A stretch of 64,000 nt of DNA from Patescibacteria group bacterium (GCA_030549895.1 JAUQQM010000001.1:44091-108090); one strand, 5' to 3'; positions 36,693 to 60,558 are shown, counted from the stretch's first letter. A program made the numbers and translations. The notes: generated by a model from the letters alone, not told the origin.

Positions 36693-36761
36693 ATGATGAA
36701 AAAAATAGGCATTATCGGTCTAGGAATAGTTGGTAAAACCCAAGATGTTAAGATTAATTAA
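36693..36761 (+). pseudogene. 22-codon remnant of a Gfo/Idh/MocA-type NAD-binding oxidoreductase N-terminus (MMKKIGIIGLGIVGKT...stop)
   Basis: Rossmann GxGxxG fingerprint KIGIIGLGIVGK followed by a stop after 22 codons. It is in a different frame from the downstream ORF. Confidence 0.5.
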
Positions 36762-37155: not shown

Positions 37156-37175
37156 GCTTAAATAATAATTTTAAG

Positions 37176-38201: not shown

Positions 38202-38213
38202 TTTTTTAAAATC

Positions 38214-39122: not shown

Positions 39123-39130
39123 TAATTAAT

Positions 39131-40105
39131 ATGAAAAAACTATCTTTTATTATTCTAACCTATAACTCAGAAGACGATATAAAAGATTGTTTGGATTCTT
39201 TGTTAAAAAATTTTGATTCAAAAGAAGCAGAGATAATAATCTGGGATAATGATTCATCTGATAATACAAAAAAGATTTTAGAAGATTACAAAAAATTTGA
39301 TTTTATAAAAATTATTTTCAATAACTCTAATATTGGTTTTGCTGAAGGAAATAATGAAGCAAGTAAGTTTGCTAATGGTGAATATATTTGTTTGTTAAAT
39401 GCGGATACTATTTCGGATTACAAGGTTTTTAAGGAAATTTTATATTATATGGAAAATAATAAAGAAATAGGAATCGTTGGCCCTAAATGTGTTAGCGAAA
39501 ATGGTGTTATTCAAGAATCATACGGTTATTTTCCTACCATTCTAAGAGAATTTTTAGGTAAGTTTTTTATGTCATTATACCTAGAAAAAATACCTCTAAT
39601 AAAAAAACTTAAAAATAAATTATTATATCAAGATAATCTGAAAGAAGTTGATTGGGTTGGAGGAGCCTGTGCTATTATAAGAAAAAATGTATGGGATAAG
39701 ATAGGGGGTTTAGATGTTACCTACTTTTTTAGTAATGGTGATATGATAGACTTTTGTTATAAAGCAAAAAATTTAGGATATAAAGTAATTTATTATCCTT
39801 TAGTTTCTATAATTCATAAAGGAAGTCGTTCGGTTACTAAAAATCTTCAATCAAGAATAACTGGCTTGAAAAGTGGATATTTAGGAACACTTTATTTCTT
39901 TAGTCAACATAATAAAAGTTTAGGTTATGTTTATTTTGTTAAATTCTGTTTTATATTTATTTCTTTAACTAAAGGTATAATAGGTAGTTTGCTTATTGTT
40001 TTTAATAGAAAATTTAAGGATTTAGCTTTAAGTCATTTTTATGTTGCTTTGTTTTTATTCAAAAATTTTTTCAATAATAATTTTAAAAAATTATGCAAAG
40101 AATAA
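39131..40105 (+). CDS. Family 2 glycosyltransferase
   Basis: LSFIILTYNSEDDI...IIWDNDSSDNT; C-terminal TM helices. Confidence 0.75.
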   Translation: MKKLSFIILTYNSEDDIKDCLDSLLKNFDSKEAEIIIWDNDSSDNTKKILEDYKKFDFIKIIFNNSNIGFAEGNNEASKFANGEYICLLNADTISDYKVFKEILYYMENNKEIGIVGPKCVSENGVIQESYGYFPTILREFLGKFFMSLYLEKIPLIKKLKNKLLYQDNLKEVDWVGGACAIIRKNVWDKIGGLDVTYFFSNGDMIDFCYKAKNLGYKVIYYPLVSIIHKGSRSVTKNLQSRITGLKSGYLGTLYFFSQHNKSLGYVYFVKFCFIFISLTKGIIGSLLIVFNRKFKDLALSHFYVALFLFKNFFNNNFKKLCKE

Positions 40106-41166
40106 TAATTTGTTCTCCGTCAAAAAATAACATAGTTGGTGGCGTAGAAAGGTTTTGTTATTTATTAAAAGATATTTTAGTTAATAATAATTTTAACGTT
40201 GAAATAGTTAGCAAAGAAGATATAGAAAATAATATTTTTTGGAAAATTTTTAAAAAAATAAAAGGTTTAGATTTAATTATTTTAGGATATTTACTAGGGA
40301 AACTGGCTAATAAACTGAAACCAGATTTAGTTATTACCAATGGTTTGTATGGTTTTAGTACTAAAATTAAATCAATTAATATAGAACACGGAACTTTTGC
40401 TGGTGCTTCAGATAAAATAGATAAAAATATTTTTAAAAAAATAATAAGAAAATATATTTGGGGTTATTTTGAAAAATTAGCTGTTCAAAAAGCAATAAAA
40501 GTTGTTGCTGTTTCAAAATATACCGAAGATTTAATTAAGAAATATTATAAAAGAAAAGACATAGAAGTTATTTTAAATGGGGTTGATATAAATTTATTTT
40601 CAAAAAAAGATAAATTTGAATCAAGAAAGATTTTCAACTTACCCCAAGATAAAAAATTAATTCTCTTTGTTGGTAGATTAAGCTACCAAAAATCTCCCGA
40701 AATTATTTATGAATTAGCAAAAAAATTTGAAAAAGATGATATATTTTTTGTTTTTGCAACTGATAGAGTTTTAAATTGGAATTTAAAAAACGCTATTTTT
40801 CTTTTAAATGTTGATTATCAAAAATTACCATTTTTATATTCAGCTTGTGATGTTTTTATTCTTCCTTCCAAACACGAAGGTTTTGCTTTTACTTTAATAG
40901 AAGCAATGGCGTGTGAAATTCCTTTTGTTATTTCAAAAGTAGGAGGTGCTTATGAAATTTTAGAAAAAACACCAGAATTAAGTGAGTTTGTTTTAGATAA
41001 TTTAAATGTTGATGAATGGTACAATAAAATAAAAAAAGTTTTATTTTTGGAAGAAAAGAAATTGGAGAAAATTAGAAAAATAGAAAGAAAGTTTGTCTTA
41101 GAAAATTGCTCTTTACAAATTTTTGAAAGAAAATATTTAAATTTGATAATGGGTATAATTAAATAA
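40093..41166 (+). CDS. Family 4 (group 1) glycosyltransferase
   Basis: C-terminal GT-B motifs FVGRLSYQKSPE...EGFAFTLIEAMACEIPFV. Confidence 0.75.
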   Translation: MQRIIICSPSKNNIVGGVERFCYLLKDILVNNNFNVEIVSKEDIENNIFWKIFKKIKGLDLIILGYLLGKLANKLKPDLVITNGLYGFSTKIKSINIEHGTFAGASDKIDKNIFKKIIRKYIWGYFEKLAVQKAIKVVAVSKYTEDLIKKYYKRKDIEVILNGVDINLFSKKDKFESRKIFNLPQDKKLILFVGRLSYQKSPEIIYELAKKFEKDDIFFVFATDRVLNWNLKNAIFLLNVDYQKLPFLYSACDVFILPSKHEGFAFTLIEAMACEIPFVISKVGGAYEILEKTPELSEFVLDNLNVDEWYNKIKKVLFLEEKKLEKIRKIERKFVLENCSLQIFERKYLNLIMGIIK

Positions 41167-42042
41167 ATGATTGACGTAATAATTCCAACAAGAAATAGAA
41201 CTAATAGTTTAAAGAAAGTTTTGCCTACTTATTTAAGGCAGAAATATTTAAATAAGATAATAATTATTGATGATGCCTCTGATGAAAATAATAGAAGAGA
41301 ACTTGAAAATTTATTAAAAATTGACAATAGAATTATTTATAAGAGATTTGAAAAACAAATATTTCTTCCTCAAGCAAGAAATGAAGGGATAAATCTTTCA
41401 ACAGCCGAATATATTTTTATGGGAGAAGATGATGTTTATTTAGAAGATAATCATCTTGAAATTCTGGTAGATTTAATGAATAAATATAACGCAGATTTAA
41501 TTGCTGGAAGGAGAATTTATATTAAAGAAAATCAAAACTTTGAAGAAGCTAAAAAAGAGGCTGATAAAGATAAAAGACCAATATTTACTCGATTTCCATT
41601 AGAAGGGTATTTTGAGAGATATTTTGAGGAAGAGATCTTAGATCCTTTATTTCTTCATTCAAATGTTTTAGTAAAAAGAAAGGTGTATGAAAATGTTTTA
41701 TATGATCCTTGGTATAGAGGAAATTCCTTTAGAGAAGATTTAGATTTTTTCCTTAGAGTTTCTGAGTTGGGGTTTAAAATGGTTTTAACTAATAAAACTT
41801 CTTGTTTTCATATAAAAGATTCGATTAATAAAAAAGGTGGGGCAAGAATGAAAAGATTGATTTATGAATACTATGTATGGAAAAATACATTTTATTGTTT
41901 TTACAAAAATAGAAGGATTTTAAGAAAAAAATTAAAGATAAAATTTCCCTTACTTCATGCTTTCTTATCTTTAATTTTGAGGTATCCTTACGCTTTATAT
42001 AGAAGAATAATATGGAAAATTCATCAAAGAAAAAACTATTAA
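41167..42042 (+). CDS. Family 2 glycosyltransferase
   Basis: IDVIIPTRNRTNSL...IIIIDDASDE. Confidence 0.7.
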   Translation: MIDVIIPTRNRTNSLKKVLPTYLRQKYLNKIIIIDDASDENNRRELENLLKIDNRIIYKRFEKQIFLPQARNEGINLSTAEYIFMGEDDVYLEDNHLEILVDLMNKYNADLIAGRRIYIKENQNFEEAKKEADKDKRPIFTRFPLEGYFERYFEEEILDPLFLHSNVLVKRKVYENVLYDPWYRGNSFREDLDFFLRVSELGFKMVLTNKTSCFHIKDSINKKGGARMKRLIYEYYVWKNTFYCFYKNRRILRKKLKIKFPLLHAFLSLILRYPYALYRRIIWKIHQRKNY

Positions 42043-43256
42043 TTTTTCTTCACAAGTTCCCTTATCCAGATAATGACAGCACTAAATTTAGGATTTTAAA
42101 TTCTGTAATTTTACCTCTCAGACAATATTTTGATATTAAAATTTTTGTAGTTACTTATGAAAATATAAAAAAAGAGGATTTGAATTTTCTAAAAAATATT
42201 GCTCCTTTAGAGTTTTATATTTTTCCTAAGTGGAGATTTTTTTTAAATATTTTATTAAACTTTTTTAGCTTTAGACCCTTTCAGACAGAAATGTTTTTTT
42301 TTAGAAATATTTTTTTGAAATTTCAAGAAGAAGCTAAAAAATTTGATGTAATATACATTCATACTGTCCGTTTAGGTAAATACATAGAAAAATTGTCTCC
42401 AGAATTAAGAGAAAAGATAATTCTTGATTTTAATGATTCAATTGCGATGCATTATTTAAATGGCTGGAAATATTATCCATGGCATTTAAAATTTGGAATA
42501 TTATTTGAGGGTTATAAATTATATTTTTATGAAAAGTTACTACTTAAAATTTTGAATAATTTTACGATAGTTTCAGAAGTAGATAAAGAATTTATTCTTA
42601 AAAATGTTAAAGAGGATTATATGAAAAATAAAAATTTTATTGTTACTTACATAAGCGCAAAAGTTAAAGACATCGAAAAATCAAATGTCGTAGATAATAA
42701 AAATGCCAGTAAATACATTTGCTTTATGGGTAATTTGAGATATTATCCTAATTGTGAGGGTATTATTCATTTTTTAAAGGATATTTGGCCATCCATTAAA
42801 AGAGAGTTTAAAGATTTAGAGTTTTTAATAATCGGCGATGTTGATAATTCCTTAAAAAAGAAATTTAAAAAAATAGATGGAGTTAAATTTTTAGGTTTTG
42901 TAGCTGACCCTACTTTAATAATTTTGAAAAGTTTAGCCTTTGTCTCACCGGTTAGAATTGGGGCTGGTTTACAAGGAAAAATTGTTGAAGCTATGGTATT
43001 GGGTCAAATTGTTATTTGTTATTATTTGAATATAAAAAAAGTGAATGGATTTGAGGATAGAAAAAATATTATGATATGTAAAGATTTTAACCCCACCGAA
43101 TGGGTAGAAGCTTTAAAATTTATTATAAATAATCGAGAAGAAGCAGAAAAAATTAAAAAAATTGCTAAAAATTTAGCTTTAACTGAATTTACTCCCCAAA
43201 AGGTTTGGGAAAAATACTTTTTTATTTTTAAAAACGTCTCTAATTATGAAGAATAA
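42012..43256 (+). CDS. Glycosyltransferase, group-1-like (GT-B)
   Basis: C-terminal half ...FMGNLRYYPNCEG...GAGLQGKIVEAMVLGQIV resembles GT4 donor-binding domain. Confidence 0.55.
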   Translation: MENSSKKKLLIFLHKFPYPDNDSTKFRILNSVILPLRQYFDIKIFVVTYENIKKEDLNFLKNIAPLEFYIFPKWRFFLNILLNFFSFRPFQTEMFFFRNIFLKFQEEAKKFDVIYIHTVRLGKYIEKLSPELREKIILDFNDSIAMHYLNGWKYYPWHLKFGILFEGYKLYFYEKLLLKILNNFTIVSEVDKEFILKNVKEDYMKNKNFIVTYISAKVKDIEKSNVVDNKNASKYICFMGNLRYYPNCEGIIHFLKDIWPSIKREFKDLEFLIIGDVDNSLKKKFKKIDGVKFLGFVADPTLIILKSLAFVSPVRIGAGLQGKIVEAMVLGQIVICYYLNIKKVNGFEDRKNIMICKDFNPTEWVEALKFIINNREEAEKIKKIAKNLALTEFTPQKVWEKYFFIFKNVSNYEE

Positions 43257-44157
43257 AAATATATTAATTGTTAAAATTGGAGCGTTGGGCGATGTGGTAA
43301 GAACAACACCTATTTTGAGGGTTTTAAGAGGAAATAGAATATACTGGTTAACAAGCAAAAAGGCTATTCCCCTTTTGCCATCTAAAGGGTATTTTATAAA
43401 AAAAATTTTTTCTGTCGAAGAAATAAATAAGCTTAAAAATATTAAATTTGATTTGGTGATTAATTTAGAAGAAGACCTGGAAATTGCTAAATTTATAACG
43501 AAAGAGTTAATTTATAAAAAAATTATTGGTGTATTTTACTCTGAGAAAGAAAATAAATTAAGATATACAAAAGAATCTAAGAAATGGTACGATATGAGTT
43601 TAATTTCAGAGCTTGGTTTAAAGAAGGCTAATAAACTGAAATGGGAAAATAAATTATCTTATCAGGAAATTTTATTTTCAATGATAGGTAAAAAATTTAA
43701 GGGTGAGGAATACGTAATTAACTATAAAGTTCGAAATAATTTTAAAAATAAACCCAAAATAGTAGCTATAGAAAAAAATGTAGGAGAAAGATGGCCGATG
43801 AAAAGATGGCCTTTTTATCATTTTTTAAAACCTAAATTAGAAAAGATGGGTTATAAAGTTTTTTATTTAAAATATTACCGAGACATTATAGATTATGTAA
43901 GAGAAATAGATAAATGTGATATTTTAATTTGTGGCGATACTTTAGCAATGCATTTAGGTTTAGCTCTAAAAAAGAAAATTTTAGCTATATTTATTTGCAC
44001 ATCTCCTTCTGAAATTTATGATTACGGCATGATGGTAAAAGTTGTTAGCCCAAAACTTAAACAAGCTTTTTATAAGAAAAGTTATGATAGAAAATTAGTT
44101 TCTGCTTTAAAAGTTAAAGATGTTCTAAGTAAATTTTATGAATTGTTAAAGCTTTAA
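43246..44157 (+). CDS. Family 9 glycosyltransferase (heptosyltransferase-like)
   Basis: N-terminus ILIVKIGALGDVVRTTPIL; C-terminal ...ILICGDTLAMHLGLAL (GT9 signature). Confidence 0.65.
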   Translation: MKNKNILIVKIGALGDVVRTTPILRVLRGNRIYWLTSKKAIPLLPSKGYFIKKIFSVEEINKLKNIKFDLVINLEEDLEIAKFITKELIYKKIIGVFYSEKENKLRYTKESKKWYDMSLISELGLKKANKLKWENKLSYQEILFSMIGKKFKGEEYVINYKVRNNFKNKPKIVAIEKNVGERWPMKRWPFYHFLKPKLEKMGYKVFYLKYYRDIIDYVREIDKCDILICGDTLAMHLGLALKKKILAIFICTSPSEIYDYGMMVKVVSPKLKQAFYKKSYDRKLVSALKVKDVLSKFYELLKL

Positions 44158-44516: not shown

Positions 44517-45194
44517 TTAAGTTATGGTTATGATATTGGTTTTTAACTTTAAGAGATCTAAAGTAGTCTTTATTCCATGTTTTATTGGAAAAAGTTTTGA
44601 CTCGCCCGCGCGTGGATAATAAGGAATATTTATTTCATCAAATTTGAATCCAGCTAAAATTGTTTTTATTTTTAATTCTTGAGATAAAGGCATATCGCCT
44701 GATTCAAGATTTATTTTCTTTAAAATTTCTTTTTTAAAAATCATCATTCCTGATTGAGAATCTTTTAGTTTTAAGCCAAAAAGAAAATTTGCTAATAAAG
44801 TTAAAAATTTATTTCCTAAAACTCTTGTAAAATTTAAAGAATTTTTATTTTGTAAAGGAAAACGAGAGCAATTTAAAAAATCTAAATTATTTTTTTCTAA
44901 ATATTCCACAACTTCTAAAATTTTTTCTCCTGGATATTGAGCATCAGCATCTAGGGTTACAATAATATCTCCCTTTGCTTCTCGGAAACCTCTTTGTAAA
45001 GCATAACCATAACCTTGTTTTGTTTCTTTTACAACTTTTGCTCCCAATTTTTTCGCAACTTCTGCTGTTTTGTCACTTGAGTTATTGTTAACAACGATAA
45101 TTTCTAGTATTTTTTCTGTTTTTGGTATTTTATTTAAAGTTTTAGCTATGCCTCTTTCCTCGTTATAAGCTGGTATAACTATAGAGATTTTCAT
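44517..45194 (-). CDS. Family 2 glycosyltransferase (polyprenyl-phosphate hexose transferase, DPM1/ArnC-like)
   Basis: ISIVIPAYNEERGI...VVNNNSSDKTAEVA...TLDADAQY. Confidence 0.75.
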   Translation of the reverse strand: MKISIVIPAYNEERGIAKTLNKIPKTEKILEIIVVNNNSSDKTAEVAKKLGAKVVKETKQGYGYALQRGFREAKGDIIVTLDADAQYPGEKILEVVEYLEKNNLDFLNCSRFPLQNKNSLNFTRVLGNKFLTLLANFLFGLKLKDSQSGMMIFKKEILKKINLESGDMPLSQELKIKTILAGFKFDEINIPYYPRAGESKLFPIKHGIKTTLDLLKLKTNIITIT

Positions 45195-45989: not shown

Positions 45990-48900
45990 ATGACAATAAA
46001 ATTATTTTTAATTTTATTGTCACCGATAATAATTTTAGGTAGTTTACTTTCTTATTCTCCTTATAATACTCATCAGGTTTTAACTGAACAAATAGCAGAA
46101 TTTTATAATCTAACTACTAATGAAAGAAGACTGACAGCTCAAGAAATTGAGTGGATGAAACAAGGAGCTGCTGATGAAGATTATCCACCAAGATGGTACA
46201 ATCATTTTTATAATCCTTTAACTGGTAAAGGTTGGACGGGTTCAAGATTAGGTAAACTTAATGCTCAACATGTTTTAAATAAATTGAAAGAATTAGGTTT
46301 AATGGTTTATGATCCAGTAAGTTCTATTGAGTGGGCAAAAAATCATTATTTTCAAGCAAGAGAAGATGATTATTGGACTTGGGATTTTGGTATAGCAAAA
46401 TATGGTGAAGGTGATTATGAAAAGGCATTCAAAACATTAGGACATATTTTGCATCTTTTAGAAGATCTAACTGTACCAGAACATGTAAGAGACGATGCTC
46501 ATCCAGATTTAGGAATTATTGGAGAGATATTTAAGAATCTTCAAGATGGTTCTCCTTATGAATCATGGGCTAAAGAATATACTCTTTCAAATTACAATAA
46601 AATTAATCTAGCTAAAGAGCTTTTTGAAAAAGGCCAAATTCCTTATGAAGTTAGTTCTCTTGAAGAAGCTTTTCATAATCTTGCTTTATTTGTAAATGCT
46701 AGCTTTTTCAGTCCTGATACAATAGGAGTTCCAGAATTTCCTGAACCAGATATAAATAAACTTGAGATAAATAAAGATCTTGTTTACTATAAAAATACAG
46801 TCGTGGCTAAACTTGAAAAAGAAGGGATAAAAGTGGTTAAAGAAATAGCTCCTTATATTTGGGAGAAAGTTACTCCAGAACTTTTAAAATATGGAGCAGG
46901 TTTAGTTAATTTGTTTTTGAAAGAAGCTGAAAATACAAAACAAGATGCTGATATTATGAGTTATTATATCTACAGAACTTCACTAACTCAAATGGGGGAA
47001 AGAATATTAAGTTGGAATATTTATCATACTTCACCTTTGATGCAAATTATAAGATTCACTAATTCAATAGATAAAGTAAAAGGTAAAATTACTCTTTCCT
47101 ATTATAGTTTGAAAGACAAATTTTTAAAGAAGACTAATGAAGTTAATGAGGATCAAATAAAAAGTGAAGAAATATCTCAAAAGGATGTAAGTTTATGGAA
47201 AAATCAAGTAATTGAAGATAGTAACCTTTCAGTTAAAGAAGAATCAAATAAAATTGAAGAAGAAAAAAGTTTTCAAAAAGAAGGAAAAGTTGCTGGATTA
47301 ATTTCAGAAGAGCCCAAAAAGATTCTTGAGGACAAAATTGAAATTTCTGAAAATAAAGTCACTGAAAATAAAATTTCTCAAAAAGACTCTAAAGTAAATA
47401 AAATAGAAACTTTAAAACCCTTACCAACATTAATTAAAAAACAAAAATCTGATGAAAAGCCTGAAGAAGATAAAGAAAATAAAAAATTACAAGACTCGAA
47501 CAAAAAAGACGCTCGTCAGCCGATTGTAATTGGTGGAGGTTATAGTTCAACTCAACAATCTGACTCTAGTAGTTCAAAATGCAAATTTGATAGTTCAGAG
47601 AAGTTTCCTAAAGTAATAATTAATGCAATAAAATTTGAAGGAGAAAATTCTAAAGATGAATTTATAGAACTTTATAATCCAAATAATTTTGAAGTTAATC
47701 TTTCTTGCTGGTCATTAGCGAAAAAGACAGCTGGAACTCAAAATACTGAATTTAGTCCTTTAGTTACAAAAAAAGAATTTAGTGGTAAGATTCCGCCTTA
47801 TAGTTTCTTTTTAATAGTTCATCCATCTTCATCTTTAAAAGAAAAAGACTTAGAGTATTCATCATTTTCTTATAGTATCTCTAAAAATAATGTTGTTGCT
47901 CTTTTAGATCCTAACAATCAGATTGTCGATCTTGTTGGTTTTGGTGACAATAAAGAGAAAATTAAGGATTTTGAAAAAGAACCATTTATTTTTCAAGACT
48001 TACCCACAGGGGCTTTTATAGAAAGAATTAATATGAAAGATTCAGATGACAATAGTCAAGATTTTCAAATAACAAAGCGATCTCCCTATAATTCAAAAAT
48101 TTCAAAAAGACCAAAAGAAAAAATTTACAAATTAAGCGAACTTGCAAGTTTGAGTCCAGATGATTTTCAAATTTTTCCTCAAAATAGAAAGCTTTTAATC
48201 TATGTTAAAGAACCATATTTTCCTGATGATCTTCAGCCAGTAAGTAATATTTTAATTTTTTCAACCTCAATTCAACCAGTCTCTCTTGAACTTACTTATA
48301 AAGGGAAAGAAAACACTTTTGTTTTAGATTTTTGCCAGGAAGGAAATTATGAGGCAGAACTTAAAATATATGATAGCGATAATGAACTTAACTTTGTAAG
48401 TTTTAAGACAAACTTTACTATAGAAAACTCAGCTTGCACCTTAGAGAGTTTCCCAAAAATTTTAATAAGCGAAGTTTTAATTGAAACAGAAACAAACTCT
48501 AAAGATGAATTTATAGAACTTTATAACCCTAATGACTTTGAAATTGATCTTTCAAATTATAAAATAGTAAAGAAAACATCAAGTGGCTCCCAGAAGACAA
48601 TACTTTCTTCAAATACTCAACCAAAACTTGAAGGTAAAATTCCACCTTATGGATACTTTTTAATTACTAATTCAAGCTCTACTTTTGTAGATATTGCTGA
48701 TTTAGTTTATCCTTATTCAAGTTCAAAAGCCTTAGCCGATAATAATACAATTTTAATTTTAGACTTAAATAATAAAGTTATTGATAAACTTGGTTGGGGC
48801 AGCGCAAAAGACTATGAGGGAAGTCCTTCTAATATTAAAGATGGTTATAGTCTAGAAAGAAAAGTTACCAAAGATTCAACTCCAGAAAGTTTAAGAAACT

Positions 48901-50549
48901 TCGAGGCTAATTTTGGAAATGCTTACGATACTGATAATAATTCTTTTGATTTTGTTCTTCAACCAAATCCAAAACCAGAAAACAAAAAAATTTCTAAACC
49001 ACTGCCAACAAGACCAACTGGTTTTAAAATTAAAACTTATTTTTCTGATCTAAATCTTGAGGGAAAATATTTGAGTTGGTATGAAAAAGTAAAAGAAGAA
49101 AATCAAATAATAGAGTTAATTTGGAATCAACCATTGATTAATGAATTTCAAGGTTACTCTTATAGAGTTGGATATAAATTTAATAATCAAGAGTCTTTAA
49201 ACTATCTTCAAGTTCAAGAGCCTATAAGAGATGATTTTTCTCTTGTTAGGATTCCTTTAAATGTCTGCCAACTAAGATCAGGACCTTATGAATTTTTTCT
49301 TGAGGTTTATAATGGCGAAGTCTCAAAAACTCTTGCCTCAACTACTTTTTTTAAAGATCCTTTTCTTTTTCCTTGTCCACCAAAAGCACCAGAAGTAAAG
49401 TTAGAGTTTGTAAATTTAAATAACGCTCAATTTCCTCCTCTTCCCGTATGGTACTCATCAAATTATTTTCTCAAACTCACTCTTAAAGATCCAGAAGATA
49501 CAGATTTTTTAGCTACACCTATATCTTGGCAGGAAATACCTCAATATAAAAGTTTTTATTTTATAAAAGTTGCTACTAGTCCAGAGCTTTTAAGTGATGA
49601 AAATTTTTTTAAAAGAAAAGATCTTTGGGGGATAGACTATGTAAGATCTGATAGTCCAAATAATCCTAGCAATCAAGCTTTAGAACCAGGGCAGAGAATA
49701 ATTTATATAGATCTTTTTGATTTTGAAAAAGGTAAAACCTACTATCTTGGTATTAAAGCATTCAGTGTTTATGATTTTCTTTACTATATGGAACAAGATA
49801 AACAAACTTTTAGGGATTATCCTTTAGAACCTTGTAAGGTAGGTAGCTTTCGGGCAAGATTTAAAGATGGCCTTATTAATATTACAAATAACTGCATCTT
49901 TACTCATTATAATGGATATTATAGTAATTTTTACGATCGAATAAGTTATCCCCAAAACACCGGAATTTGGCAAGATCCAAATTTTTATGATACCGAGAAT
50001 CATTTAGAACCAATACCTAATATTCCACCTTCAAATTGGCAAGAAGTACCCCTAGAAAAACATGTTCAAAATTATCCTCATCTTCTTTCTTCAACTACGA
50101 TTGTTACTTTTACAGTTCCAGAAGATCTACCGATTCCTGATTCTTCAAGATTTTTTAAGTATGCAAAATTTTTTCAAGAAGATGGCTCTATTTATTTTGA
50201 ATTTACTCCAAGAAACAGAATTCCTCAAGTCTGGCGAATTATGGTCTCGCTTAAGACAGTAAAAGATAACACTTTCACCCCAAATATTCCTGGAGAAGAA
50301 AATTTTTATAATATGGTAACTCCTATTTTTACAATTTTTAGCGGTCCAGTAAGAGATTTTCCTTCTAAAGATCAAGATGGAAATGATCTTGTCTATAAAT
50401 TTAAAGTTTTAGATATTCCTCAAGATTATATTTTTGACGAAAATGATATCTTTTCTCTTGTTTTAGAATATTCCCCATATGGATATCCACGACCAAGTCT
50501 TCATTTTGATGATTTTAAATATAAATTTAACAACGAATACAGAGAATAA
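45990..50549 (+). CDS. Giant (1519 aa) secreted/surface protein: N-terminal Zn-dependent phospholipase C / nuclease-P1-like domain, K/E-rich linker, two lamin-tail (LTD) domains, C-terminal beta-rich region
   Basis: WYNHFYNPLTGKG and LGHILHLLEDLTVPEHV match PLC zinc motifs (HFYDP; LGxSLHYLGDxNQPMHA). Two copies of ...NSKDEFIELYNPN.FE..LS...KIPPY..FLI. Confidence 0.6.
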   Translation: MTIKLFLILLSPIIILGSLLSYSPYNTHQVLTEQIAEFYNLTTNERRLTAQEIEWMKQGAADEDYPPRWYNHFYNPLTGKGWTGSRLGKLNAQHVLNKLKELGLMVYDPVSSIEWAKNHYFQAREDDYWTWDFGIAKYGEGDYEKAFKTLGHILHLLEDLTVPEHVRDDAHPDLGIIGEIFKNLQDGSPYESWAKEYTLSNYNKINLAKELFEKGQIPYEVSSLEEAFHNLALFVNASFFSPDTIGVPEFPEPDINKLEINKDLVYYKNTVVAKLEKEGIKVVKEIAPYIWEKVTPELLKYGAGLVNLFLKEAENTKQDADIMSYYIYRTSLTQMGERILSWNIYHTSPLMQIIRFTNSIDKVKGKITLSYYSLKDKFLKKTNEVNEDQIKSEEISQKDVSLWKNQVIEDSNLSVKEESNKIEEEKSFQKEGKVAGLISEEPKKILEDKIEISENKVTENKISQKDSKVNKIETLKPLPTLIKKQKSDEKPEEDKENKKLQDSNKKDARQPIVIGGGYSSTQQSDSSSSKCKFDSSEKFPKVIINAIKFEGENSKDEFIELYNPNNFEVNLSCWSLAKKTAGTQNTEFSPLVTKKEFSGKIPPYSFFLIVHPSSSLKEKDLEYSSFSYSISKNNVVALLDPNNQIVDLVGFGDNKEKIKDFEKEPFIFQDLPTGAFIERINMKDSDDNSQDFQITKRSPYNSKISKRPKEKIYKLSELASLSPDDFQIFPQNRKLLIYVKEPYFPDDLQPVSNILIFSTSIQPVSLELTYKGKENTFVLDFCQEGNYEAELKIYDSDNELNFVSFKTNFTIENSACTLESFPKILISEVLIETETNSKDEFIELYNPNDFEIDLSNYKIVKKTSSGSQKTILSSNTQPKLEGKIPPYGYFLITNSSSTFVDIADLVYPYSSSKALADNNTILILDLNNKVIDKLGWGSAKDYEGSPSNIKDGYSLERKVTKDSTPESLRNFEANFGNAYDTDNNSFDFVLQPNPKPENKKISKPLPTRPTGFKIKTYFSDLNLEGKYLSWYEKVKEENQIIELIWNQPLINEFQGYSYRVGYKFNNQESLNYLQVQEPIRDDFSLVRIPLNVCQLRSGPYEFFLEVYNGEVSKTLASTTFFKDPFLFPCPPKAPEVKLEFVNLNNAQFPPLPVWYSSNYFLKLTLKDPEDTDFLATPISWQEIPQYKSFYFIKVATSPELLSDENFFKRKDLWGIDYVRSDSPNNPSNQALEPGQRIIYIDLFDFEKGKTYYLGIKAFSVYDFLYYMEQDKQTFRDYPLEPCKVGSFRARFKDGLINITNNCIFTHYNGYYSNFYDRISYPQNTGIWQDPNFYDTENHLEPIPNIPPSNWQEVPLEKHVQNYPHLLSSTTIVTFTVPEDLPIPDSSRFFKYAKFFQEDGSIYFEFTPRNRIPQVWRIMVSLKTVKDNTFTPNIPGEENFYNMVTPIFTIFSGPVRDFPSKDQDGNDLVYKFKVLDIPQDYIFDENDIFSLVLEYSPYGYPRPSLHFDDFKYKFNNEYRE

Positions 50550-54585: not shown

Positions 54586-54921
54586 ATGGACAAGAAAATA
54601 AGCTTGATTACAAGTAAATATCTTCGAGATGTTCCAGAAATTAAAAGTGGTATGAAAGTAAGAGTAACAGAAAAACTTAAAGAAGGAAAGTTTCAACAGT
54701 TTGAAGGAATTGTTATTGCTGTAAAACATGGGAGAGGAATTAATGCAACTTTTACAGTTAGGGGCCAAGTTGCTGGTGAATGGGTTGAAAAAATTTACCC
54801 CCTTCATTCACCCATGATTGAGAAAATAGAAATTTTAAAAAAGGGGAAATCTAGAAAAGCTAAACTTTACTTTATAAGAGATTGGCCAGAAAGTAAAATT
54901 AGAAAAAGACTAAAATTATAG
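54586..54921 (+). CDS. rplS: Ribosomal protein L19
   Basis: ...GMKVRVTEKLKEGKFQQFEGIVIAVKHGRG...KAKLYFIRD. Confidence 0.9.
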   Translation: MDKKISLITSKYLRDVPEIKSGMKVRVTEKLKEGKFQQFEGIVIAVKHGRGINATFTVRGQVAGEWVEKIYPLHSPMIEKIEILKKGKSRKAKLYFIRDWPESKIRKRLKL

Positions 54922-54992
54922 CGGGTGTAGTTCAATGGTAGAACGTCTCCCTTCCAAGGAGAAGGTTGCGGGTTCGAGTCCCGTCACCCGCT
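54921..54992 (+). tRNA. tRNA-Gly (TCC)
   Basis: GCGGGTG acceptor, anticodon loop CTTCCAA, T loop TTCGAGT. The first nt is shared with the rplS stop codon. Confidence 0.85.
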
Positions 54993-54993
54993 C

Positions 54994-55066
54994 GGGCCGG
55001 TAGCTCAGTTGGTAGAGCGCCGCTATGGCATGGCGGAGGTCACGGGTTCAAGTCCCGTCCGGTCCA
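54994..55066 (+). tRNA. tRNA-Ala (GGC), G3:U70
   Basis: GGGCCGG/CCGGTCC acceptor with G3:U70, anticodon loop ATGGCAT, T arm ACGGG-TTCAAGT-CCCGT. Confidence 0.85.
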
Positions 55067-55109
55067 CAATTTTATTTTGTAGATTTTCAAAGATTAGTTA
55101 TAATTTTTA

Positions 55110-56126
55110 ATGCCAAGAAAAAAGAGAATTTTTGAAAAATTACCTGAACCTATAATTGAACCTCAAAGCGAAAATTTTTGGGAAGCTTGGCAAACTTTCA
55201 ATCCAGGAGTACTTTTTTGTGATGGGAAAATTCATTTTCTTTATAGAGCAATAGGATATGATGGTATTTCTAGATTTGGTTATGCTTTTTCTTATGATGG
55301 TTTTGAAATAGAAGAAAGACTTCAAGAGCCTGTATATGAACATAAAACTCATTTTCGGGAATTTTCATTTTATTCATATTTTTCAGGTGGATGTCTTGGT
55401 GGTGCTGAAGATCCAAGAATTACTTTAATTGAAGATACAATCTATGTTCTTTATGTAGGTTTTGATAATTATTTACCTCAACTTTATATAACTTCAATTA
55501 AAAAAGATGATTTTCTTTCTTATAACTGGAACTTTACTAAAGCAATAAATATTTCCCCGCCTAACATTATTGTTAAAAGCGGAGTTCTTTTTCCAGAAAA
55601 AATTAAAGGTAGGTATCTTATTTTCTATAGAATCTTTCCTGATATTTGGGGAGATTTTGTTGATGATTTAGAGTTTAAAGAGAAGAAATATCTTCAAGGA
55701 GAAATTTTTATAAAAATAAGGGAAAATAGTTGGGACAGTAGAAAAATAGGAGCAGGGGCGCCCCCAATTAAAACTCGCTATGGTTGGCTTTTAATTTACT
55801 ATGGGGTTAACGATAAAGATCCGGGTAAATATCATATTGGGGCAATGATTCTTGATTTAGAAGATCCTAGGAAAGTAATTGTAAGATCAGAGCCACTTAT
55901 AAGTCCTTCTGAGTGGTATGAACTTAATGGTCATAAACCAGGAATTTGTTATCCTACTGGAGCAGTGGTTAAAGATGGAAAAATTTTAATTTACTATGGT
56001 GCAGCTGATAGTTATGTAGCTGTTGCTTGGGCTAGCTTTGATTACTTTTTAGAAGAGTTAATAAGAGGTAAAAAAGCTTATTTTGAGAAAAAACTTGTAG
56101 GTAAAAAATCAAAAACTAGAAAATGA
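55110..56126 (+). CDS. GH130-family glycoside phosphorylase-like protein (single domain)
   Basis: WQTFNPGVLFCDGKIHFLYRAIGYDGISRFGYAFSYDG...GGAEDPRITLIEDTIYVLYVG, the GH130/DUF377 signature. Confidence 0.7.
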   Translation: MPRKKRIFEKLPEPIIEPQSENFWEAWQTFNPGVLFCDGKIHFLYRAIGYDGISRFGYAFSYDGFEIEERLQEPVYEHKTHFREFSFYSYFSGGCLGGAEDPRITLIEDTIYVLYVGFDNYLPQLYITSIKKDDFLSYNWNFTKAINISPPNIIVKSGVLFPEKIKGRYLIFYRIFPDIWGDFVDDLEFKEKKYLQGEIFIKIRENSWDSRKIGAGAPPIKTRYGWLLIYYGVNDKDPGKYHIGAMILDLEDPRKVIVRSEPLISPSEWYELNGHKPGICYPTGAVVKDGKILIYYGAADSYVAVAWASFDYFLEELIRGKKAYFEKKLVGKKSKTRK

Positions 56127-58021
56127 TAAAAAGGTATGAAAAAAACCCAATTTTAAGCCCTGATTTTAAATCATCTTGGGAAGCATATGCAGTTTTTAAC
56201 CCTTGTCCAGTAATTTTTAAAGGAAAAATTTATCTTTTATATAGAGCTCTTTCTTTGCCTCACTATCATCATTTAGCAAGAATGGTTCTTTCTGTCTCAG
56301 ATATAGGAATTTGTGAAAGTAAAGATGGAATTAATTTTAAAAAAAGAAGAAAATTTATTTGGCCAGAGTATGAATGGGAAAAATTTGGTTGCGAAGATCC
56401 AAGAATTGTTGAGTTCGAAGGTAACTTTTACATTTTTTATACAGCTCTTTCTGTTTATCCTTTCTCAAGTGAAGGAATTAAAGTTGGTTTAGCAATCTCT
56501 AAGGATTTGAAAAGTATAAAAGAAAAACATCTTATTAGTCCTTTTAATGCAAAAGCAATGAGTCTTTTTCCGGAAAGAATAGATGGAAAAATTTGGGCAA
56601 TTCTTACAGTAAACACTGATAGACCCCCGGTTGAAATTTGTCTTTGGCAAGGAGAAAGAATTGAAGATTTATGGAATGAGAAAAAATGGATAGAGTGGTA
56701 TAAAGAGCACAAGAATTGGGCTCTTAATCTTAAAAGAAAAGACAACGACTACATAGAAGTTGGCTCTCCTCCACTAAAGACTCCTTATGGTTGGTTACTT
56801 TTTTTCAGCTATATTAAAGATTATTTTTCTCCCTCAAGAGTTTTTACTATCGAAGCCATGCTTTTAGATTTAAAAGATCCAAGAAAAATTATAAGCAGAA
56901 CAAAATTTCCTCTTCTTTTTCCTTTGCAGCATTACGAAAGGATAGGCATTGTAAACAATGTTGTTTTTCCTTCAGGAGCAATTTTAAAAGGAAAAAAGAT
57001 TTATCTTTACTACGGAGCAGCGGATACTGTTTGTGCTCTTGCTTTTGTTGATTTTGAAGAATTAATTAAAAAGTTAACCGAGAAAAAAGAATTTCAAGTT
57101 ATAAAGTTAGAGAAACCAATAATTTCACCAACAGAACTTCCCTGGGAAAGTAAAGCAACATTTAATCCTGGAGTAATTTATCTAGAAGGCAAATTTCATA
57201 TTCTTTACCGGGCAATGAGCCAAGATAACACCTCTGTTTTTGGTTATGCTCAAAGTGATGATGGTCTACATATTACTTATAGATCAAAAGAGCCAGTTTA
57301 TATTCCAAGAGAGGACTTTGAAAAGAAAATTATCCCCAAAGGAAATAGTGGTTGTGAAGATCCACGAATCACCTACATAAAAGAAGATAAAAAAATTTAT
57401 CTTCTTTATACAGCTTTTGATGGTCTTAACCCTCCAAAAGTTGCTTTTTCTTCAATTAAAGTTGATGATTTTCTTTCAAAAAATTGGAACTGGGAAAAAC
57501 CAAAAGTAATTTCTTTTCCTAATTTAGATGATAAAGATGCCTGTTTGTTTCCGGAGAAAATTAATGGTAAATATTGGATTGTCCATCGCGTTGGTGATGA
57601 TATAGATATTACTTGTGTAGATAATTTAGAATTTAAAGATTATTTAGGCGAGATAAGATGGATTTGGCCAAGACCTGGATTTTGGGATAGCAGAAAAGTA
57701 GGAGCTGGTGCTCCACCAATAAAGACTCCTTATGGTTGGCTTTTGATTTATCATGGAGTAGACGAGAAAGGAGTTTATCGAGTTGGCTTTATCCTTACTG
57801 ATCTTAAGAATCCTTTGAAAATTATTTCCAGAAGTTACGAGCCATTTATGGAACCAGATAAAGATTGGGAAATTAAAGGATTAGTTGATAATGTAGTTTT
57901 TCCTTGTGGGATGGTTATGCTTAAAGATAAAATTTTTATTTACTACGGAGGAGCAGATAAGGTTGTTGGTGTTGCTTTAACATCTTTAAAAGATGTTTTA
58001 GCTCATTTAGGGATTAAATGA
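56123..58021 (+). CDS. Tandem double-GH130-domain protein (beta-mannoside phosphorylase-like)
   Basis: Two repeats of ...FNP..V...GK...LYRA...GCEDPRI......Y..YTA...PPIKTPYGWLL.YHGV... Confidence 0.7.
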   Translation: MIKRYEKNPILSPDFKSSWEAYAVFNPCPVIFKGKIYLLYRALSLPHYHHLARMVLSVSDIGICESKDGINFKKRRKFIWPEYEWEKFGCEDPRIVEFEGNFYIFYTALSVYPFSSEGIKVGLAISKDLKSIKEKHLISPFNAKAMSLFPERIDGKIWAILTVNTDRPPVEICLWQGERIEDLWNEKKWIEWYKEHKNWALNLKRKDNDYIEVGSPPLKTPYGWLLFFSYIKDYFSPSRVFTIEAMLLDLKDPRKIISRTKFPLLFPLQHYERIGIVNNVVFPSGAILKGKKIYLYYGAADTVCALAFVDFEELIKKLTEKKEFQVIKLEKPIISPTELPWESKATFNPGVIYLEGKFHILYRAMSQDNTSVFGYAQSDDGLHITYRSKEPVYIPREDFEKKIIPKGNSGCEDPRITYIKEDKKIYLLYTAFDGLNPPKVAFSSIKVDDFLSKNWNWEKPKVISFPNLDDKDACLFPEKINGKYWIVHRVGDDIDITCVDNLEFKDYLGEIRWIWPRPGFWDSRKVGAGAPPIKTPYGWLLIYHGVDEKGVYRVGFILTDLKNPLKIISRSYEPFMEPDKDWEIKGLVDNVVFPCGMVMLKDKIFIYYGGADKVVGVALTSLKDVLAHLGIK

Positions 58022-58770
58022 AAATTAATTTTAAAGATAAAAAACTTTTAGCTTTTGATTTAGATGGAACTTTAACTTTAAGTAAATCAAAAATTAAAAA
58101 AAAGATGAAAAAATTACTTTTAGATCTGAGTAATTTTTATTTTATCTTTATAATTGGAGGTGGAAGAAAAAAAGAAATTGAAAGACAAATAGAAGACCTT
58201 AGAGACTATGTTTTTCTTGGTGCTGTTTCTGGCACCAGAATTTATAAGAAAGGAAAACTAATATTAAAAGAAAAGAATATGACAAAAAAACAAATTGAAC
58301 TTATAAAGAAAAATCTTAAATTTTATTTAAAAAGTTTAAAACTTAATTTTAAAACATTTGGCAGAAGAATTGATTTTCGCGGTTCTCAACTTACTTTTTC
58401 TTTTTTAGGCGTTAAAGCACCACTTGAAGAAAAGTTAAAATTTTCCAAACTTGATGAGAAAATTAAAATAAGAAAAAAATTAATTTATTATATGAAGAAA
58501 AGATTAAAAAATATTGACTCTTCCATAGGTGGCTTAACTTCAGTTGATTTTAATTTAAAAAATCAAAATAAAGGTTCAATGATTTTAAAGCTTGCTAAAT
58601 TTTTAGGAATTAAAAAGAGGGAAATTTTATTTTTTGGGGATAAAATTTTTCCTTATGGTAACGATTATTCTGTTTTTAAAAAAGGAATAGAATGTATTTT
58701 AGTTAAAAATCCAGAGGAGACTTTTAAAATTTTAAAGAAAATTTATGGATATTTTAAAAATAATAATTGA
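58018..58770 (+). CDS. HAD-IIB hydrolase, eukaryotic-type phosphomannomutase-like
   Basis: LLAFDLDGTLT DxDGT motif; about 250 aa; operon context with GH130 genes. Confidence 0.55.
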   Translation: MKINFKDKKLLAFDLDGTLTLSKSKIKKKMKKLLLDLSNFYFIFIIGGGRKKEIERQIEDLRDYVFLGAVSGTRIYKKGKLILKEKNMTKKQIELIKKNLKFYLKSLKLNFKTFGRRIDFRGSQLTFSFLGVKAPLEEKLKFSKLDEKIKIRKKLIYYMKKRLKNIDSSIGGLTSVDFNLKNQNKGSMILKLAKFLGIKKREILFFGDKIFPYGNDYSVFKKGIECILVKNPEETFKILKKIYGYFKNNN

Positions 58771-59668
58771 ACATTTTTTTAAAAGCTTAAAATTCAGACC
58801 AAAAATTTCAAAAGGATTTAAACTTAAAAAAAGAGTTTTATTTTTTGGACTTGGTGGCTCTGGTTTTGGCGGAGAGATTTTAAAATTCCTTAGCAAAAGA
58901 GTTATTTTAGTTGAAAAGAATTATAAGTTTAGTTTTCAGCAAAAATTAGATGATTTTTCTACTATTGTCTGTTCTTGGTCAGGAAAAACAAAAGAGATTC
59001 AACTTGTTTTAAATGAAATAAAAAAAACAAAACCACTTATTGTGAGTTCTGGTGATCTTGCAAGTAAATTTAAAAATTTACCAACGATAATTTTACCAAA
59101 AAATGAGTTTCCTCCTCGTTTTAATCTAGGTTACTTTATTTCTGTTTTTTCTTTTCTTGAAGAAAAAAAGCTTTGGAGAAGACTTCAAAAAATAAATACA
59201 AAAAAAATTTTAAAGAAAGTATTGGAAATTTTAGATGATAAATTTTCAAAAGATGTTATTTTAAAAATTAAAAAGAGAATTTCTTTGGTTTATAGTTCAA
59301 AAGAAAATTTTCCTCTTGCTTATCTTATGAAGATAAAATTAAATGAAAATTCAAAAATTCCAGCTTTTTGCAATTTTTTTCCTGAGCTTGCTCATAATGA
59401 ACTTTCTTTTCTTCCAAGATATTCTCGAAAATTTTTGTTTGTTATTTTAAAAGATAAAAAAGAAAAGTTTATAGAGTTCCAAGTTGAAATTTTTAAAAAA
59501 ATTCTAAAAAATTCAGAAATAATCGAGATAATTTTACCTGAAGAAAAACTCGAAAAGCTTATCTTTGTAAATCTTCTTTCCGACGTCCTTACTTATAAGA
59601 TTTCTGGTTCGAATATAATAAAAAATAAGACTTTAGAAGTTTTTAAAAAAAAATTTAGGAAAATATGA
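58745..59668 (+). CDS. SIS-domain bifunctional phosphoglucose/phosphomannose isomerase (PGI/PMI-like)
   Basis: VLFFGLGGSGFGGEIL (GMGGSxIGG-like), ...FPELAHNEL...; about 300 aa as in archaeal-type PGI/PMI. Confidence 0.5.
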   Translation: MDILKIIIEHFFKSLKFRPKISKGFKLKKRVLFFGLGGSGFGGEILKFLSKRVILVEKNYKFSFQQKLDDFSTIVCSWSGKTKEIQLVLNEIKKTKPLIVSSGDLASKFKNLPTIILPKNEFPPRFNLGYFISVFSFLEEKKLWRRLQKINTKKILKKVLEILDDKFSKDVILKIKKRISLVYSSKENFPLAYLMKIKLNENSKIPAFCNFFPELAHNELSFLPRYSRKFLFVILKDKKEKFIEFQVEIFKKILKNSEIIEIILPEEKLEKLIFVNLLSDVLTYKISGSNIIKNKTLEVFKKKFRKI

Positions 59669-60558
59669 GGGAGATAAAATACAATAAGAATTTTAAAATA
59701 ATTACAGTTATTGATCCAGGTGCTGATGATTTTGATTTCATCGAGAATGAATTCAAGATAGAAAAGAACGATTTAGAAGAATTTAAAATGCCCTATCATC
59801 TTTCTGATTATGATGTAAGGACTAAGTACAGTTTTTTAGTTATTTCTTTCCCTAAAGAGAAAAATTTTTTAAAAGAGGCCCTTGAAATAGAAAATGTTTA
59901 CTTTTTCTTTTCTAATACTTTCTTTATTTGTCTTTCTAAAGGAGAGTCACTAGTAAACAAGATAATAGATGATATTTTAGATAACCCAAAAATTTCTCTT
60001 CCTAATACTGAAAAATTACTTTATTACATTTTAAAATCCCTTCTTAAAGTTTACTATTCAATTTTAAGAACAATAGATCATGAAATAAATTTTTTAGACA
60101 AAAATATAAATAAATTATCACCTCAAATCCTTAACCAGAGAATTGTCTTTTTAAAGAAAAATCTCATTTTATTTTTAACAAACACAAAATCTTTTTATGA
60201 AGTTTTTGAAGAAATTGTCAAAAACCGCATGCCAAATTTTAGAAGATATTCTCATCTTTGGGAAGGTTTTTTGGATGAAGTAAATTATATCTATGTTAGG
60301 CTTGAAGACTATCAACTTATCATTGATGGCTATCAAAGATCAATTGAAAATATCCTTTCTATCAACATTAACAAAAATATTTTGCTTATAACTTTGATTC
60401 AGACATTATTTTTACCTCCAACACTTATAGCTTCAATTTATGGCATGAATGTAAATTTACCACTTGCTCATAAAAATTATGCTTTTTATCTTATTTTATT
60501 TTTTATGTTTTTTATAAGTATTCTTTTTTGGCTTTTGTTAATTAAAAAGAAAGGCTAA
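59665..60558 (+). CDS. CorA-family divalent-cation (Mg2+/Co2+) transporter
   Basis: C-terminal two TM helices with YGMN signature (IYGMNVNLP). Confidence 0.75.
   Translation: MREIKYNKNFKIITVIDPGADDFDFIENEFKIEKNDLEEFKMPYHLSDYDVRTKYSFLVISFPKEKNFLKEALEIENVYFFFSNTFFICLSKGESLVNKIIDDILDNPKISLPNTEKLLYYILKSLLKVYYSILRTIDHEINFLDKNINKLSPQILNQRIVFLKKNLILFLTNTKSFYEVFEEIVKNRMPNFRRYSHLWEGFLDEVNYIYVRLEDYQLIIDGYQRSIENILSININKNILLITLIQTLFLPPTLIASIYGMNVNLPLAHKNYAFYLILFFMFFISILFWLLLIKKKG

Follow-up and report, generated by a model that had tools for sequence, protein, structure and literature searches.

GH130 genes of the locus and their active-site residues

In a 64,000-nucleotide stretch of DNA from a Patescibacteria group bacterium (in the following, the window), positions 55110-59668 of the plus strand carry four overlapping genes that encode three domains of glycoside hydrolase family GH130, a phosphomannomutase (PMM)-like enzyme and a putative phosphoglucose/phosphomannose isomerase (PGI/PMI). 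The first gene (55110..56126) encodes a single-domain protein of 338 aa that matches PF04041 with 164 bits (E=4e-48). The second (56123..58021) encodes a tandem GH130-GH130 protein of 632 aa, in which the same profile matches two stretches with 333 bits (E=3e-99). We refer to the single domain as type A, to the N-terminal domain of the tandem protein (residues 1-325; 56123..57097) as type B, and to its C-terminal domain (residues 326-632; 57098..58021) as type C. From the residue pattern we predict a hydrolase-like, non-phosphorolytic activity for type B; type C carries the signature of a canonical β-1,2-mannoside phosphorylase. The third gene (58018..58770) encodes a HAD-IIB mutase of the eukaryotic phosphomannomutase type (250 aa; PF03332, 71 bits, gathering cut-off 22.4), and the fourth (58745..59668) a SIS-domain isomerase of the PGI/PMI family (307 aa; bact-PGI_C, PF10432, 63 bits, cut-off 24.5). 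A preliminary description of the locus had reported one single and one tandem GH130 protein followed by the eukaryotic-type PMM-like HAD enzyme and the SIS PGI/PMI. All of this was reproduced, with the open reading frames exactly at the coordinates given; the sole addition is corA, which is translationally coupled to these genes and extends the operon.

All these profile matches greatly exceed what chance would produce. The PF04041 matches and the modelled five-bladed β-propeller fold place the domains in GH130. AlphaFold2 modelled the tandem protein with a mean pLDDT of 95.2 and a pTM of 0.89, and the best structural matches of the model were Teth514_1788 and Teth514_1789 (TM score 0.87-0.91, root-mean-square deviation ~2 Å). 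By sequence, these two enzymes (9fj8 and 7fip) were also the nearest solved relatives of all three domains, with overall E values of 2e-51 to 7e-65, and the β-1,4 phosphorylases were the weakest solved matches (3was, 40-64 bits). The top NCBIfam model for the GH130 domains was that of the β-1,2-mannobiose phosphorylase family, which scored below its cut-off.

GH130 activity is determined by one catalytic Asp and a phosphate-binding Arg/His pair; in the GH130_3 hydrolases the basic phosphate residues are replaced and Glu227/Glu268 serve as base (PMC7660257, PMC4599007, PMC12814180). At the +1 subsite, Glu/Lys denotes β-1,2, Glu/Arg β-1,3 and Tyr/Arg β-1,4 linkages (PMC7660257). Reference GH130 sequences were rebuilt from HMMER alignments to PDB chains and aligned with the domains of the window and of related loci using MAFFT. 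The column mapping exactly reproduced the published residue numbers of BT3780 (R89, E141, D142, K199, E268, Y302 and D363) and of Uhgb_MS (E136, K184, R202 and R242). The catalytic proton-donor Asp, equivalent to UhgbMP D104 and BT3780 D142, is D101 in type A, D92 in type B and D413 in type C, and the Glu/Lys pair occurs in every domain (E100/K156, E91/K144 and E412/K471, respectively). Both are invariant across types A, B and C, as are the residues of the −1 subsite (N, D, D and F/Y; equivalents of N74, D363 and F344), and the +1 Arg is kept in all three. With these residues retained, all three domains look competent for binding β-1,2-mannose and for protonating the leaving group. Because the published Glu/Lys rule applies, we infer that all three are specific for β-1,2-mannosides.

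The preliminary description had instead proposed mannan or N-glycan fragments as substrates. GH130 does include enzymes acting on β-1,4-mannan or on N-glycan (Man-β1,4-GlcNAc) fragments, such as BT1033, UhgbMP, RaMP1/2 and BfMGP, and the downstream route through PMM and PMI equals that described for these enzymes (PMC4264767). However, in all three domains Glu rather than Tyr stands beside the catalytic Asp and Lys rather than Arg at +1, and the 3was-type enzymes score lowest among the solved matches. Since the Tyr/Arg signature is absent from every domain, β-1,4 or N-glycan specificity was ruled out, and that three true phosphorylases scavenge such fragments after import appears very improbable. 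The specificity residues point to β-1,2 linkages in place of the mannan or N-glycan substrates first assumed.

The three domains differ at the phosphate site, which among them is complete in type C only. In type C every determinant is present (R363, E412, D413, K471, R489, K525, H544, Y552 and D612), with R489, K525, H544 and Y552 forming the full phosphate site. The domain is 43-46% identical to Teth514_1788 and Teth514_1789, and the canonical pattern was found in 26/29 type-C representatives; by signature, type C is predicted to be a canonical β-1,2-mannoside phosphorylase. The key residues of type A are R46, E100, D101, K156, R174, K212, Y231, Y241 and D300. Its phosphate site is near-complete: R174, K212 and Y241 are kept and Tyr231 replaces the phosphate-binding His, an exchange tolerated in one meta-node of predicted phosphorylases (PMC7660257). 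The best solved match of type A was Teth514_1788 (9fj8, E=2e-51), followed by Teth514_1789 (7fip). Types A and C both have Gly in the BT3780 E268 column and hence no base Glu there. They share the β-1,2 signature with Uhgb_MS and Lin0857, the GH130_4 β-1,2-mannobiose phosphorylases with dual glycosyltransferase (GT) activity, and the residues equivalent to Uhgb_MS K184, R202 and R242 are present in types C and A. In contrast to GH130_4, where a lid loop of ~48 aa limits products to a degree of polymerisation of 3, types A and C lack the lid. Many type-A proteins of other loci are longer (~610 aa; loci L009, L013, L014 and L016-L018, proteins P0151-P0264), with an additional N-terminal stretch of ~270 aa that matches GH130 weakly (12-35 bits) and looks like a degenerate fourth propeller; the protein encoded in the window is the short form.

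The key residues of type B are R41, E91, D92, K144, T162, Y210, E212, S229, F241 and D301. At the phosphate positions, Thr162 stands in place of Arg, Tyr210 of Arg/Lys, Ser229 of His and Phe241 of Tyr, and the gained Glu212 sits in the BT3780 Glu268 column of the MAFFT alignment. Independently, hhalign placed the 'IEVG' segment of type B on BT3780 'TECG', and S229 on N285. Glu212, Asp92, Lys144 and Phe241 were invariant in 29 diverse homologues (41-71% identity), and the type-B residue pattern was kept in 22/24 representatives clustered at 50% identity. Val, Ile or Met occupies the BT3780 Glu227 position, so that one of the two GH130_3 base glutamates is present. The loss of the phosphate site together with the gain of an invariant Glu in the Glu268 column leads us to predict that type B is hydrolase-like and non-phosphorolytic, which departs from the earlier count of three phosphorylase domains. 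A basic-to-acidic exchange of this kind reportedly turns GH130 phosphorylases into mannosidases (Cuskin et al.).

Type B resembles the Bacteroides GH130_3 enzymes BT3780 and BACOVA_03624 in having lost the phosphate Arg and His and in carrying Glu at the Glu268 position, and it keeps the equivalents of BT3780 Lys199, Glu141, Asp142 and Asp363. It differs from them in lacking Glu227 and a signal peptide, in its low identity (~30%) and in being cytoplasmic and fused to a phosphorylase. It scored 68 bits against BT3780 versus 154 bits against Teth514_1788, and types A and C are no more remote from GH130_3 than it is. In a neighbour-joining (NJ) tree it formed its own clade (100/100 bootstraps), which grouped with GH130_3 in 22/100 and with GH130_4 in 48/100 bootstraps, and it was the group most distant from GH130_3. 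We therefore read type B as a probable independent conversion of a phosphorylase-type site to a hydrolase-like one. A hydrophobic leader is absent from its N-terminus (MIKRYEKNPILSPDF), and its fusion partner is a phosphorylase of the cytoplasmic type; the single-domain protein likewise lacks such a leader, and neither GH130 protein has a signal peptide. Type B further carries a conserved 'PHYH' insert. Two other candidate residues were considered: Asp166 was rejected as catalytic base, as it equals the Asp of a 'PD' motif conserved in phosphorylases too, and Arg167 of 'DRPP' found no support as a shifted phosphate Arg, suggested by the pairwise alignment to Lin0857, as this position is only ~50% K/R across homologues.

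It is unlikely that type B is no hydrolase but a strict glycosyltransferase or transglycosylase, or a silent binding or oligomerisation partner that mimics the Teth514_1788 homodimer. Strict GT108 transferases likewise lack the phosphate-binding Arg (PMC10913872), and type B has an insertion of ~20 aa, modelled by AlphaFold2 as three short helices at 180-199, in loop L2, which governs glycosyltransferase versus glycoside phosphorylase behaviour (PMC12814180). The pTM of the tandem model also suggests a fixed two-propeller assembly. However, type B has no counterparts of R202 and R242, the two residues with which Uhgb_MS holds the nucleotide diphosphate, and this disfavours a GDP-mannose transferase. 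Asp92, Glu91, Lys144, Arg41, Asn26 and Asp301 are invariant, which is not expected of a silent domain, and the gained Glu matches the base position of BT3780.

The predicted mutase and isomerase, and the distribution of the gene set

The HAD enzyme matched TIGR01484 (HAD-IIB) with 70 bits, and its best solved relatives were human PMM2 and PMM1 (E=3e-23), followed by the Lactococcus lactis α-phosphoglucomutase (α-PGM). Motifs I (DxDGT), III (Lys) and IV (GDx5GND) are present, and D12, D14, R123, S179, D181, K189, D209, N216 and D217 of PMM2 are conserved. The enzyme is accordingly predicted from its sequence to interconvert α-mannose-1-phosphate (Man1P) and mannose-6-phosphate (Man6P), possibly with activity on glucose-1-phosphate (Glc1P) too. 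In the SIS enzyme, the GGSG and SGxT phosphate motifs of the Pyrobaculum PGI/PMI (1tzb) are conserved, and the alignment matches three further residues, Arg, Glu (of NEN) and His (of AHN), to corresponding motifs of 1tzb; we take these three to be the catalytic residues R135, E203 and H219. The protein is predicted to interconvert Man6P (and glucose-6-phosphate) with fructose-6-phosphate (Fru6P).

To count related loci, we used a metagenome scan with an alignment in place of a genome-contig scan with the single protein, which gave 16 loci. At least 569 relatives were found in this one scan, and distinct loci were defined as those with tandem proteins below 90% identity, resulting in 94 loci from bacteria of the candidate phyla radiation (CPR) and archaea. 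The best 120 database matches of the tandem protein were all fusions with the tandem pair (48-99% identity, mostly near 60%). All but two of them were ~630-680 aa in length; the other two, P0025 (971 aa) and P0033 (996 aa), have three domains and are A-B-C triple fusions. Named sources among these 120 were Patescibacteria lineages, Nanoarchaeota, Nezhaarchaeales and Elusimicrobia. Typing of 151 representatives with clade-specific hidden Markov models yielded 24 proteins with B-C, the A-B-C fusions P0025 and P0033, 34 proteins with A alone and ~57 of the 'long A' kind, in which a degenerate GH130-like domain precedes A. A type-A gene lay no more than three genes upstream of the tandem gene in 77/94 loci and directly adjacent in 72, counts that have to be seen against the 87 of 94 loci in which any upstream gene was present.

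Each type was monophyletic in NJ analysis (bootstraps of 95, 100 and 83 out of 100 for A, B and C), and A and C were sister clades (97%). Four GH130-GH130 entries, none characterised, were listed in the curated CAZy set of 2018 (PMC7660257). Given the recurrence of the pair in 77/94 loci and the tandem-only best matches, the fusion, which the preliminary description had called unusual, is the norm in this lineage, and its rarity is confined to curated CAZy. Between CPR bacteria and archaeal metagenome-assembled genomes, the tandem protein shows 59-61% identity, about the level of GyrB within CPR, which implies transfer between domains of life as well as strong constraint. L029 is an archaeal contig, and an unambiguous archaeal context, with ribosomal protein L34e, was observed in one locus. 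In the literature searched on GH130 in CPR, Patescibacteria and DPANN organisms we found one passing mention, of two CPR GH130 genes without signal peptides (PMC7143001), and no description of the A + B-C trio.

Neighbouring genes were clustered over the 94 loci. A PMI was located beside the GH130 pair in 23/94 loci, of the cupin type in 20 and of the SIS PGI/PMI type in three (the window, L040 and L041). A HAD-IIB gene was found beside the pair in 21/94 loci, and 15 of these cluster with the PMM-like protein of the window. Ten loci contain a small nucleotidyltransferase of the cytidylyltransferase fold beside the pair (L012, L058, L099, L050, L086, L031, L010, L056, L084 and L042). This protein of ~155 aa with an HxGH motif is co-operonic with the HAD, PMI and GH130 genes; its best match was RfaE domain II (heptose-1-phosphate adenylyltransferase; 87 bits, below the cut-off), and its product may be an NDP-mannose distinct from GDP-mannose. 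At least one of the three genes was present in 30/94 loci, with nucleotidyltransferase > HAD > PMI > A > B-C as a recurring co-directional order. That cupin and SIS PMI swap for each other is good evidence of functional association. Synteny thus backs the link from GH130 to mannose phosphates drawn in the preliminary description, as PMI and/or HAD-IIB genes accompany the pair in many independent lineages.

The remaining recurrent neighbours (HPF, Fmt, Def and FtsE) were all housekeeping genes. Genes for sugar importers, secreted glycanases, ManC or glycosyltransferases did not recur beside the pair, and no transporter, endo-mannanase or N-glycan-trimming enzyme was linked to it in any of the 94 loci. 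With no linked importer or secreted glycanase in these loci, the scavenging put forward in the preliminary description is not supported. Together with the missing phosphate site of type B, this further argues against three phosphorylases fed by imported mannan or N-glycan fragments. In two loci (L007, 7150-7902, and L008) a short-chain dehydrogenase resembling glucose-1-dehydrogenase (275 bits, above the cut-off) is encoded beside the tandem gene and may handle free hexose from a hydrolytic step; a less specific enzyme of this kind is located two genes downstream in L005 (10535-11224).

The neighbour counts also bear on whether the PMM-like enzyme and the PGI/PMI are housekeeping hexose-phosphate enzymes, providing for example Glc1P for GalU and envelope glycans, that adjoin the GH130 genes by accident. 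A galU gene (34754-35632) is located in the window beside a glycosyltransferase gene cluster, HAD-type PMMs also convert glucose phosphates, and the L. lactis α-PGM is a good match. However, PMI and HAD-IIB genes occur beside the pair at the frequencies given above and are usually co-directional with it, and the PMI is of two unrelated folds, so that accidental adjacency is highly improbable.

Proposed turnover of β-1,2-mannosides and its alternatives

Based on the observed domain identities, residue patterns, conservation, synteny and fold, from which we infer every catalytic activity and the flux direction, we propose with a probability of roughly 0.6 that the genes form a cytoplasmic module for the turnover of β-1,2-mannosides in a CPR (Parcubacteria-type) bacterium, leading to and from Man1P, Man6P and Fru6P. 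Type C would reversibly phosphorolyse β-1,2-mannosides from the non-reducing end to α-mannose-1-phosphate without the use of ATP, and type A would probably catalyse the same reaction, perhaps with another chain-length or acceptor preference. The HAD phosphomannomutase would then convert Man1P to Man6P, and the SIS PGI/PMI Man6P to Fru6P, which would enter central metabolism. Type B, with the acid and both sugar subsites kept, would most likely cleave a β-1,2-mannosidic bond with water; its target could be a residue or aglycone linkage beyond the reach of the phosphorylases. As all steps except the hydrolysis would be reversible, the module could also build β-1,2-mannosides from Fru6P.

Several observations weigh against this proposal. 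The phosphate site of type A varies between genomes (R/Q, S/H with a shifted Arg, R/H and R/Y). Type B has the Glu268 equivalent only and no signal peptide, so that a role in transglycosylation, synthesis or binding is possible. In the HAD enzyme, besides a change of PMM2 R21 to K, the exchanges of S47 to G, R134 to V with an adjacent Lys, and R141 to K are real though conservative, and phosphoglucomutase or phosphatase activity is conceivable instead; R123, R134, R141 and S179 of PMM2 are presumably the cap residues that bind the substrate phosphate. The SIS enzyme reached 130 bits with TIGR02128 (bifunctional PGI/PMI), below the cut-off of 214, and its phmmer alignment to 1tzb ends at query residue 221, before the C-terminal residues proposed to determine PMI activity, which we take to be Thr291 and Lys298 of the Pyrobaculum enzyme. 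The A, B and C clades have no characterised member, and identity to the nearest enzymes of known activity is only 33-46%. Finally, β-1,2-mannosides are rare in nature and in the environment (PMC4264767).

The rarity of environmental β-1,2-mannan (PMC4264767) at the same time favours an endogenous reserve or glycoconjugate cycle similar to that of Leishmania mannogen, which we regard as possible but not probable. A cytoplasmic β-1,2-mannan or mannoside would then be made from Fru6P via Man6P and Man1P and later phosphorolysed; synthesis would use an NDP-mannose in some genomes, and reverse phosphorolysis or the weak GT activity of β-1,2 GH130 enzymes, with type B as a trimming hydrolase. Such a cycle would agree with the absence of an importer or secreted enzyme beside the module in the 94 loci, and the order nucleotidyltransferase > HAD mutase > PMI > A > B-C amounts to a classical sugar-activation set. 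The ~60% identity of the tandem protein across CPR, about the GyrB level, fits a core physiological role. All β-1,2-specific GH130 phosphorylases tested also use GDP-mannose, and Teth514_1788 builds long chains via reverse phosphorolysis (PMC12814180). On the other hand, no β-1,2-mannan has been reported from members of the CPR or DPANN groups, the CPR lifestyle is generally regarded as one of scavenging, and the window contains neither the nucleotidyltransferase nor a ManC homologue. Moreover, the match of the nucleotidyltransferase to RfaE domain II is below the cut-off, and PMI and PMM are reversible, so that gene order leaves the direction unfixed.

The Leishmania mannogen enzymes (MTPs, GT108) have the five-bladed propeller in common with the domains described here (TM ~0.7), and there, too, several paralogues split synthesis and phosphorolysis of β-1,2-mannan, with changes at the Arg position separating the activities. 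In contrast, they belong to another CAZy family with 16-17% identity, and the strict transferases among them have His at the Arg position instead of Thr/Ser and a gained Glu. We know of no storage polymer in CPR organisms. A more far-reaching idea, which we regard as doubtful, is that the A + B-C trio with PMI, HAD mutase and often the RfaE-II-like nucleotidyltransferase represents an unrecognised intracellular β-1,2-mannan reserve of CPR and of DPANN or other archaea, with synthase-like, phosphorylase and hydrolase roles split among the three propellers and the hydrolase-like domain having arisen independently of GH130_3.

Returning to the turnover module as proposed, the trio is a variant of known β-1,2-mannoside phosphorylase systems that is made up of three clades without a characterised member. 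The closest such system is formed by the GH130_6 enzymes Teth514_1788 (1,2-β-oligomannan phosphorylase) and Teth514_1789 (β-1,2-mannobiose phosphorylase) of Thermoanaerobacter sp. X-514. Both systems share the Glu/Lys signature, the cytoplasmic location and the arrangement in two adjacent paralogous genes, and types A and C are 38-46% identical to the Thermoanaerobacter enzymes. The Thermoanaerobacter cluster is also tied to Man1P metabolism, as a Man1P guanylyltransferase gene adjoins Teth514_1788/1789 (PMC4264767). However, both Teth514 enzymes are single-domain and canonical, whereas the locus described here comprises three types, two of them fused and one without a phosphate site. In addition, the Thermoanaerobacter cluster contains an ATP-binding cassette importer and a GH5 gene, whereas the module described here has no importer and includes PMM and PMI and, in related loci, the nucleotidyltransferase.

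CPR and DPANN organisms have a minimal metabolism, and their acquisition and storage of sugars are poorly understood. The module is conserved at about the GyrB level, is common to two domains of life and is located at the Man1P/Man6P/Fru6P node, which together make it a strong candidate for a main ATP-free route of carbohydrate entry or buffering. With regard to enzymology, the module contains a canonical β-1,2 phosphorylase that is naturally fused to a sister domain remodelled to a hydrolase-like form outside GH130_3, and type B is predicted to be a second case, apparently independent of the first, in which a phosphorylase became a hydrolase. What stands out in the system is this fused, hydrolase-like domain and how very widely the genes are conserved among CPR bacteria and archaea.

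Operon boundaries and genomic surroundings

The operon comprises five genes, the last being corA (59665..60558, plus strand), which encodes a Mg2+/Co2+ channel of 297 aa (PF01544, 123 bits) and is translationally coupled to the isomerase gene; successive stop and start codons along the run overlap by 4, 4, 26 and 4 nt. CorA probably takes no part in sugar conversion, and corA did not recur beside GH130 genes in the other loci among the 94. Upstream of the operon, tRNA-Gly(UCC) (54921-54993, plus strand) and tRNA-Ala(GGC) (54994-55067, plus strand) are encoded back to back, and the end of the latter is 42 nt 5' of the first GH130 start codon. A separate operon promoter, if any, must therefore be confined to this 42-nt spacer or be located 5' of the tRNAs. 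A scan with promoter and terminator consensus sequences gave no useful signal, as 25 promoter-like sites were counted and 25.5 expected.

Near the 3' end of the PGI/PMI gene (~59645), a one-base indel in a run of A was observed relative to the ~97% identical loci L001 and L002. It alters the last ~6 residues and the stop of the protein (307 aa versus 313 aa) and may reflect either variation between strains or a mistake in the assembly. Compared codon by codon with L001, a strain variant of ~97% nucleotide identity, the three GH130 domains show synonymous to nonsynonymous ratios of 28:3, 25:5 and 21:4, and this synonymous excess indicates clear purifying selection on all three. For the PMM-like gene the ratio was weaker (15:9). 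No sign of a recent horizontal acquisition of the operon was found, as the third-position GC content of the GH130 genes (14-20%) is within the range of host genes (13-22%).

The region has a GC content of ~27%, and the window includes gyrB, dnaA, dnaN, several tRNA synthetase and ribosomal protein genes as well as genes for FtsW, a penicillin-binding protein and PilB. The nearest named relatives of GyrB (~60% identity) are from Parcubacteria, Paceibacterota, Giovannonibacteria and Azambacteria, which places the organism among the CPR (Patescibacteria). An origin-type neighbourhood at 13374-19855 consists of gyrB and a 2-hydroxyacid dehydrogenase gene on the minus strand, followed by dnaA and dnaN on the plus strand. 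A tRNA-Ile predicted by ARAGORN (16253-16325) overlaps a GTG-started open reading frame at 15268-16323, the true start of which is therefore probably further downstream.

A run of glycan biosynthesis genes at 36730-44157 on the plus strand has a very low GC content (23-25%) and a strong positive GC skew. It encodes a CmcI-like methyltransferase, three GT2, two GT4 and one GT9-like protein, and a homologue of the 'reversibly glycosylated polypeptide' (PF03214, 147 bits), a plant-type family that is unusual in bacteria. The run is flanked by the above-mentioned galU gene on the minus strand (TIGR01099, 362 bits) and, on the other side, by a GT2 gene resembling dolichyl-phosphate-hexose transferases (44517-45194, minus strand). 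Lamin-tail domains (LTD) were identified in a protein of 1519 aa (45990-50549, plus strand) and in one of 248 aa (8319-9065, minus strand), the gene of the latter adjoining that of a tyrosine recombinase of the Phage_integrase family (9068-9925).

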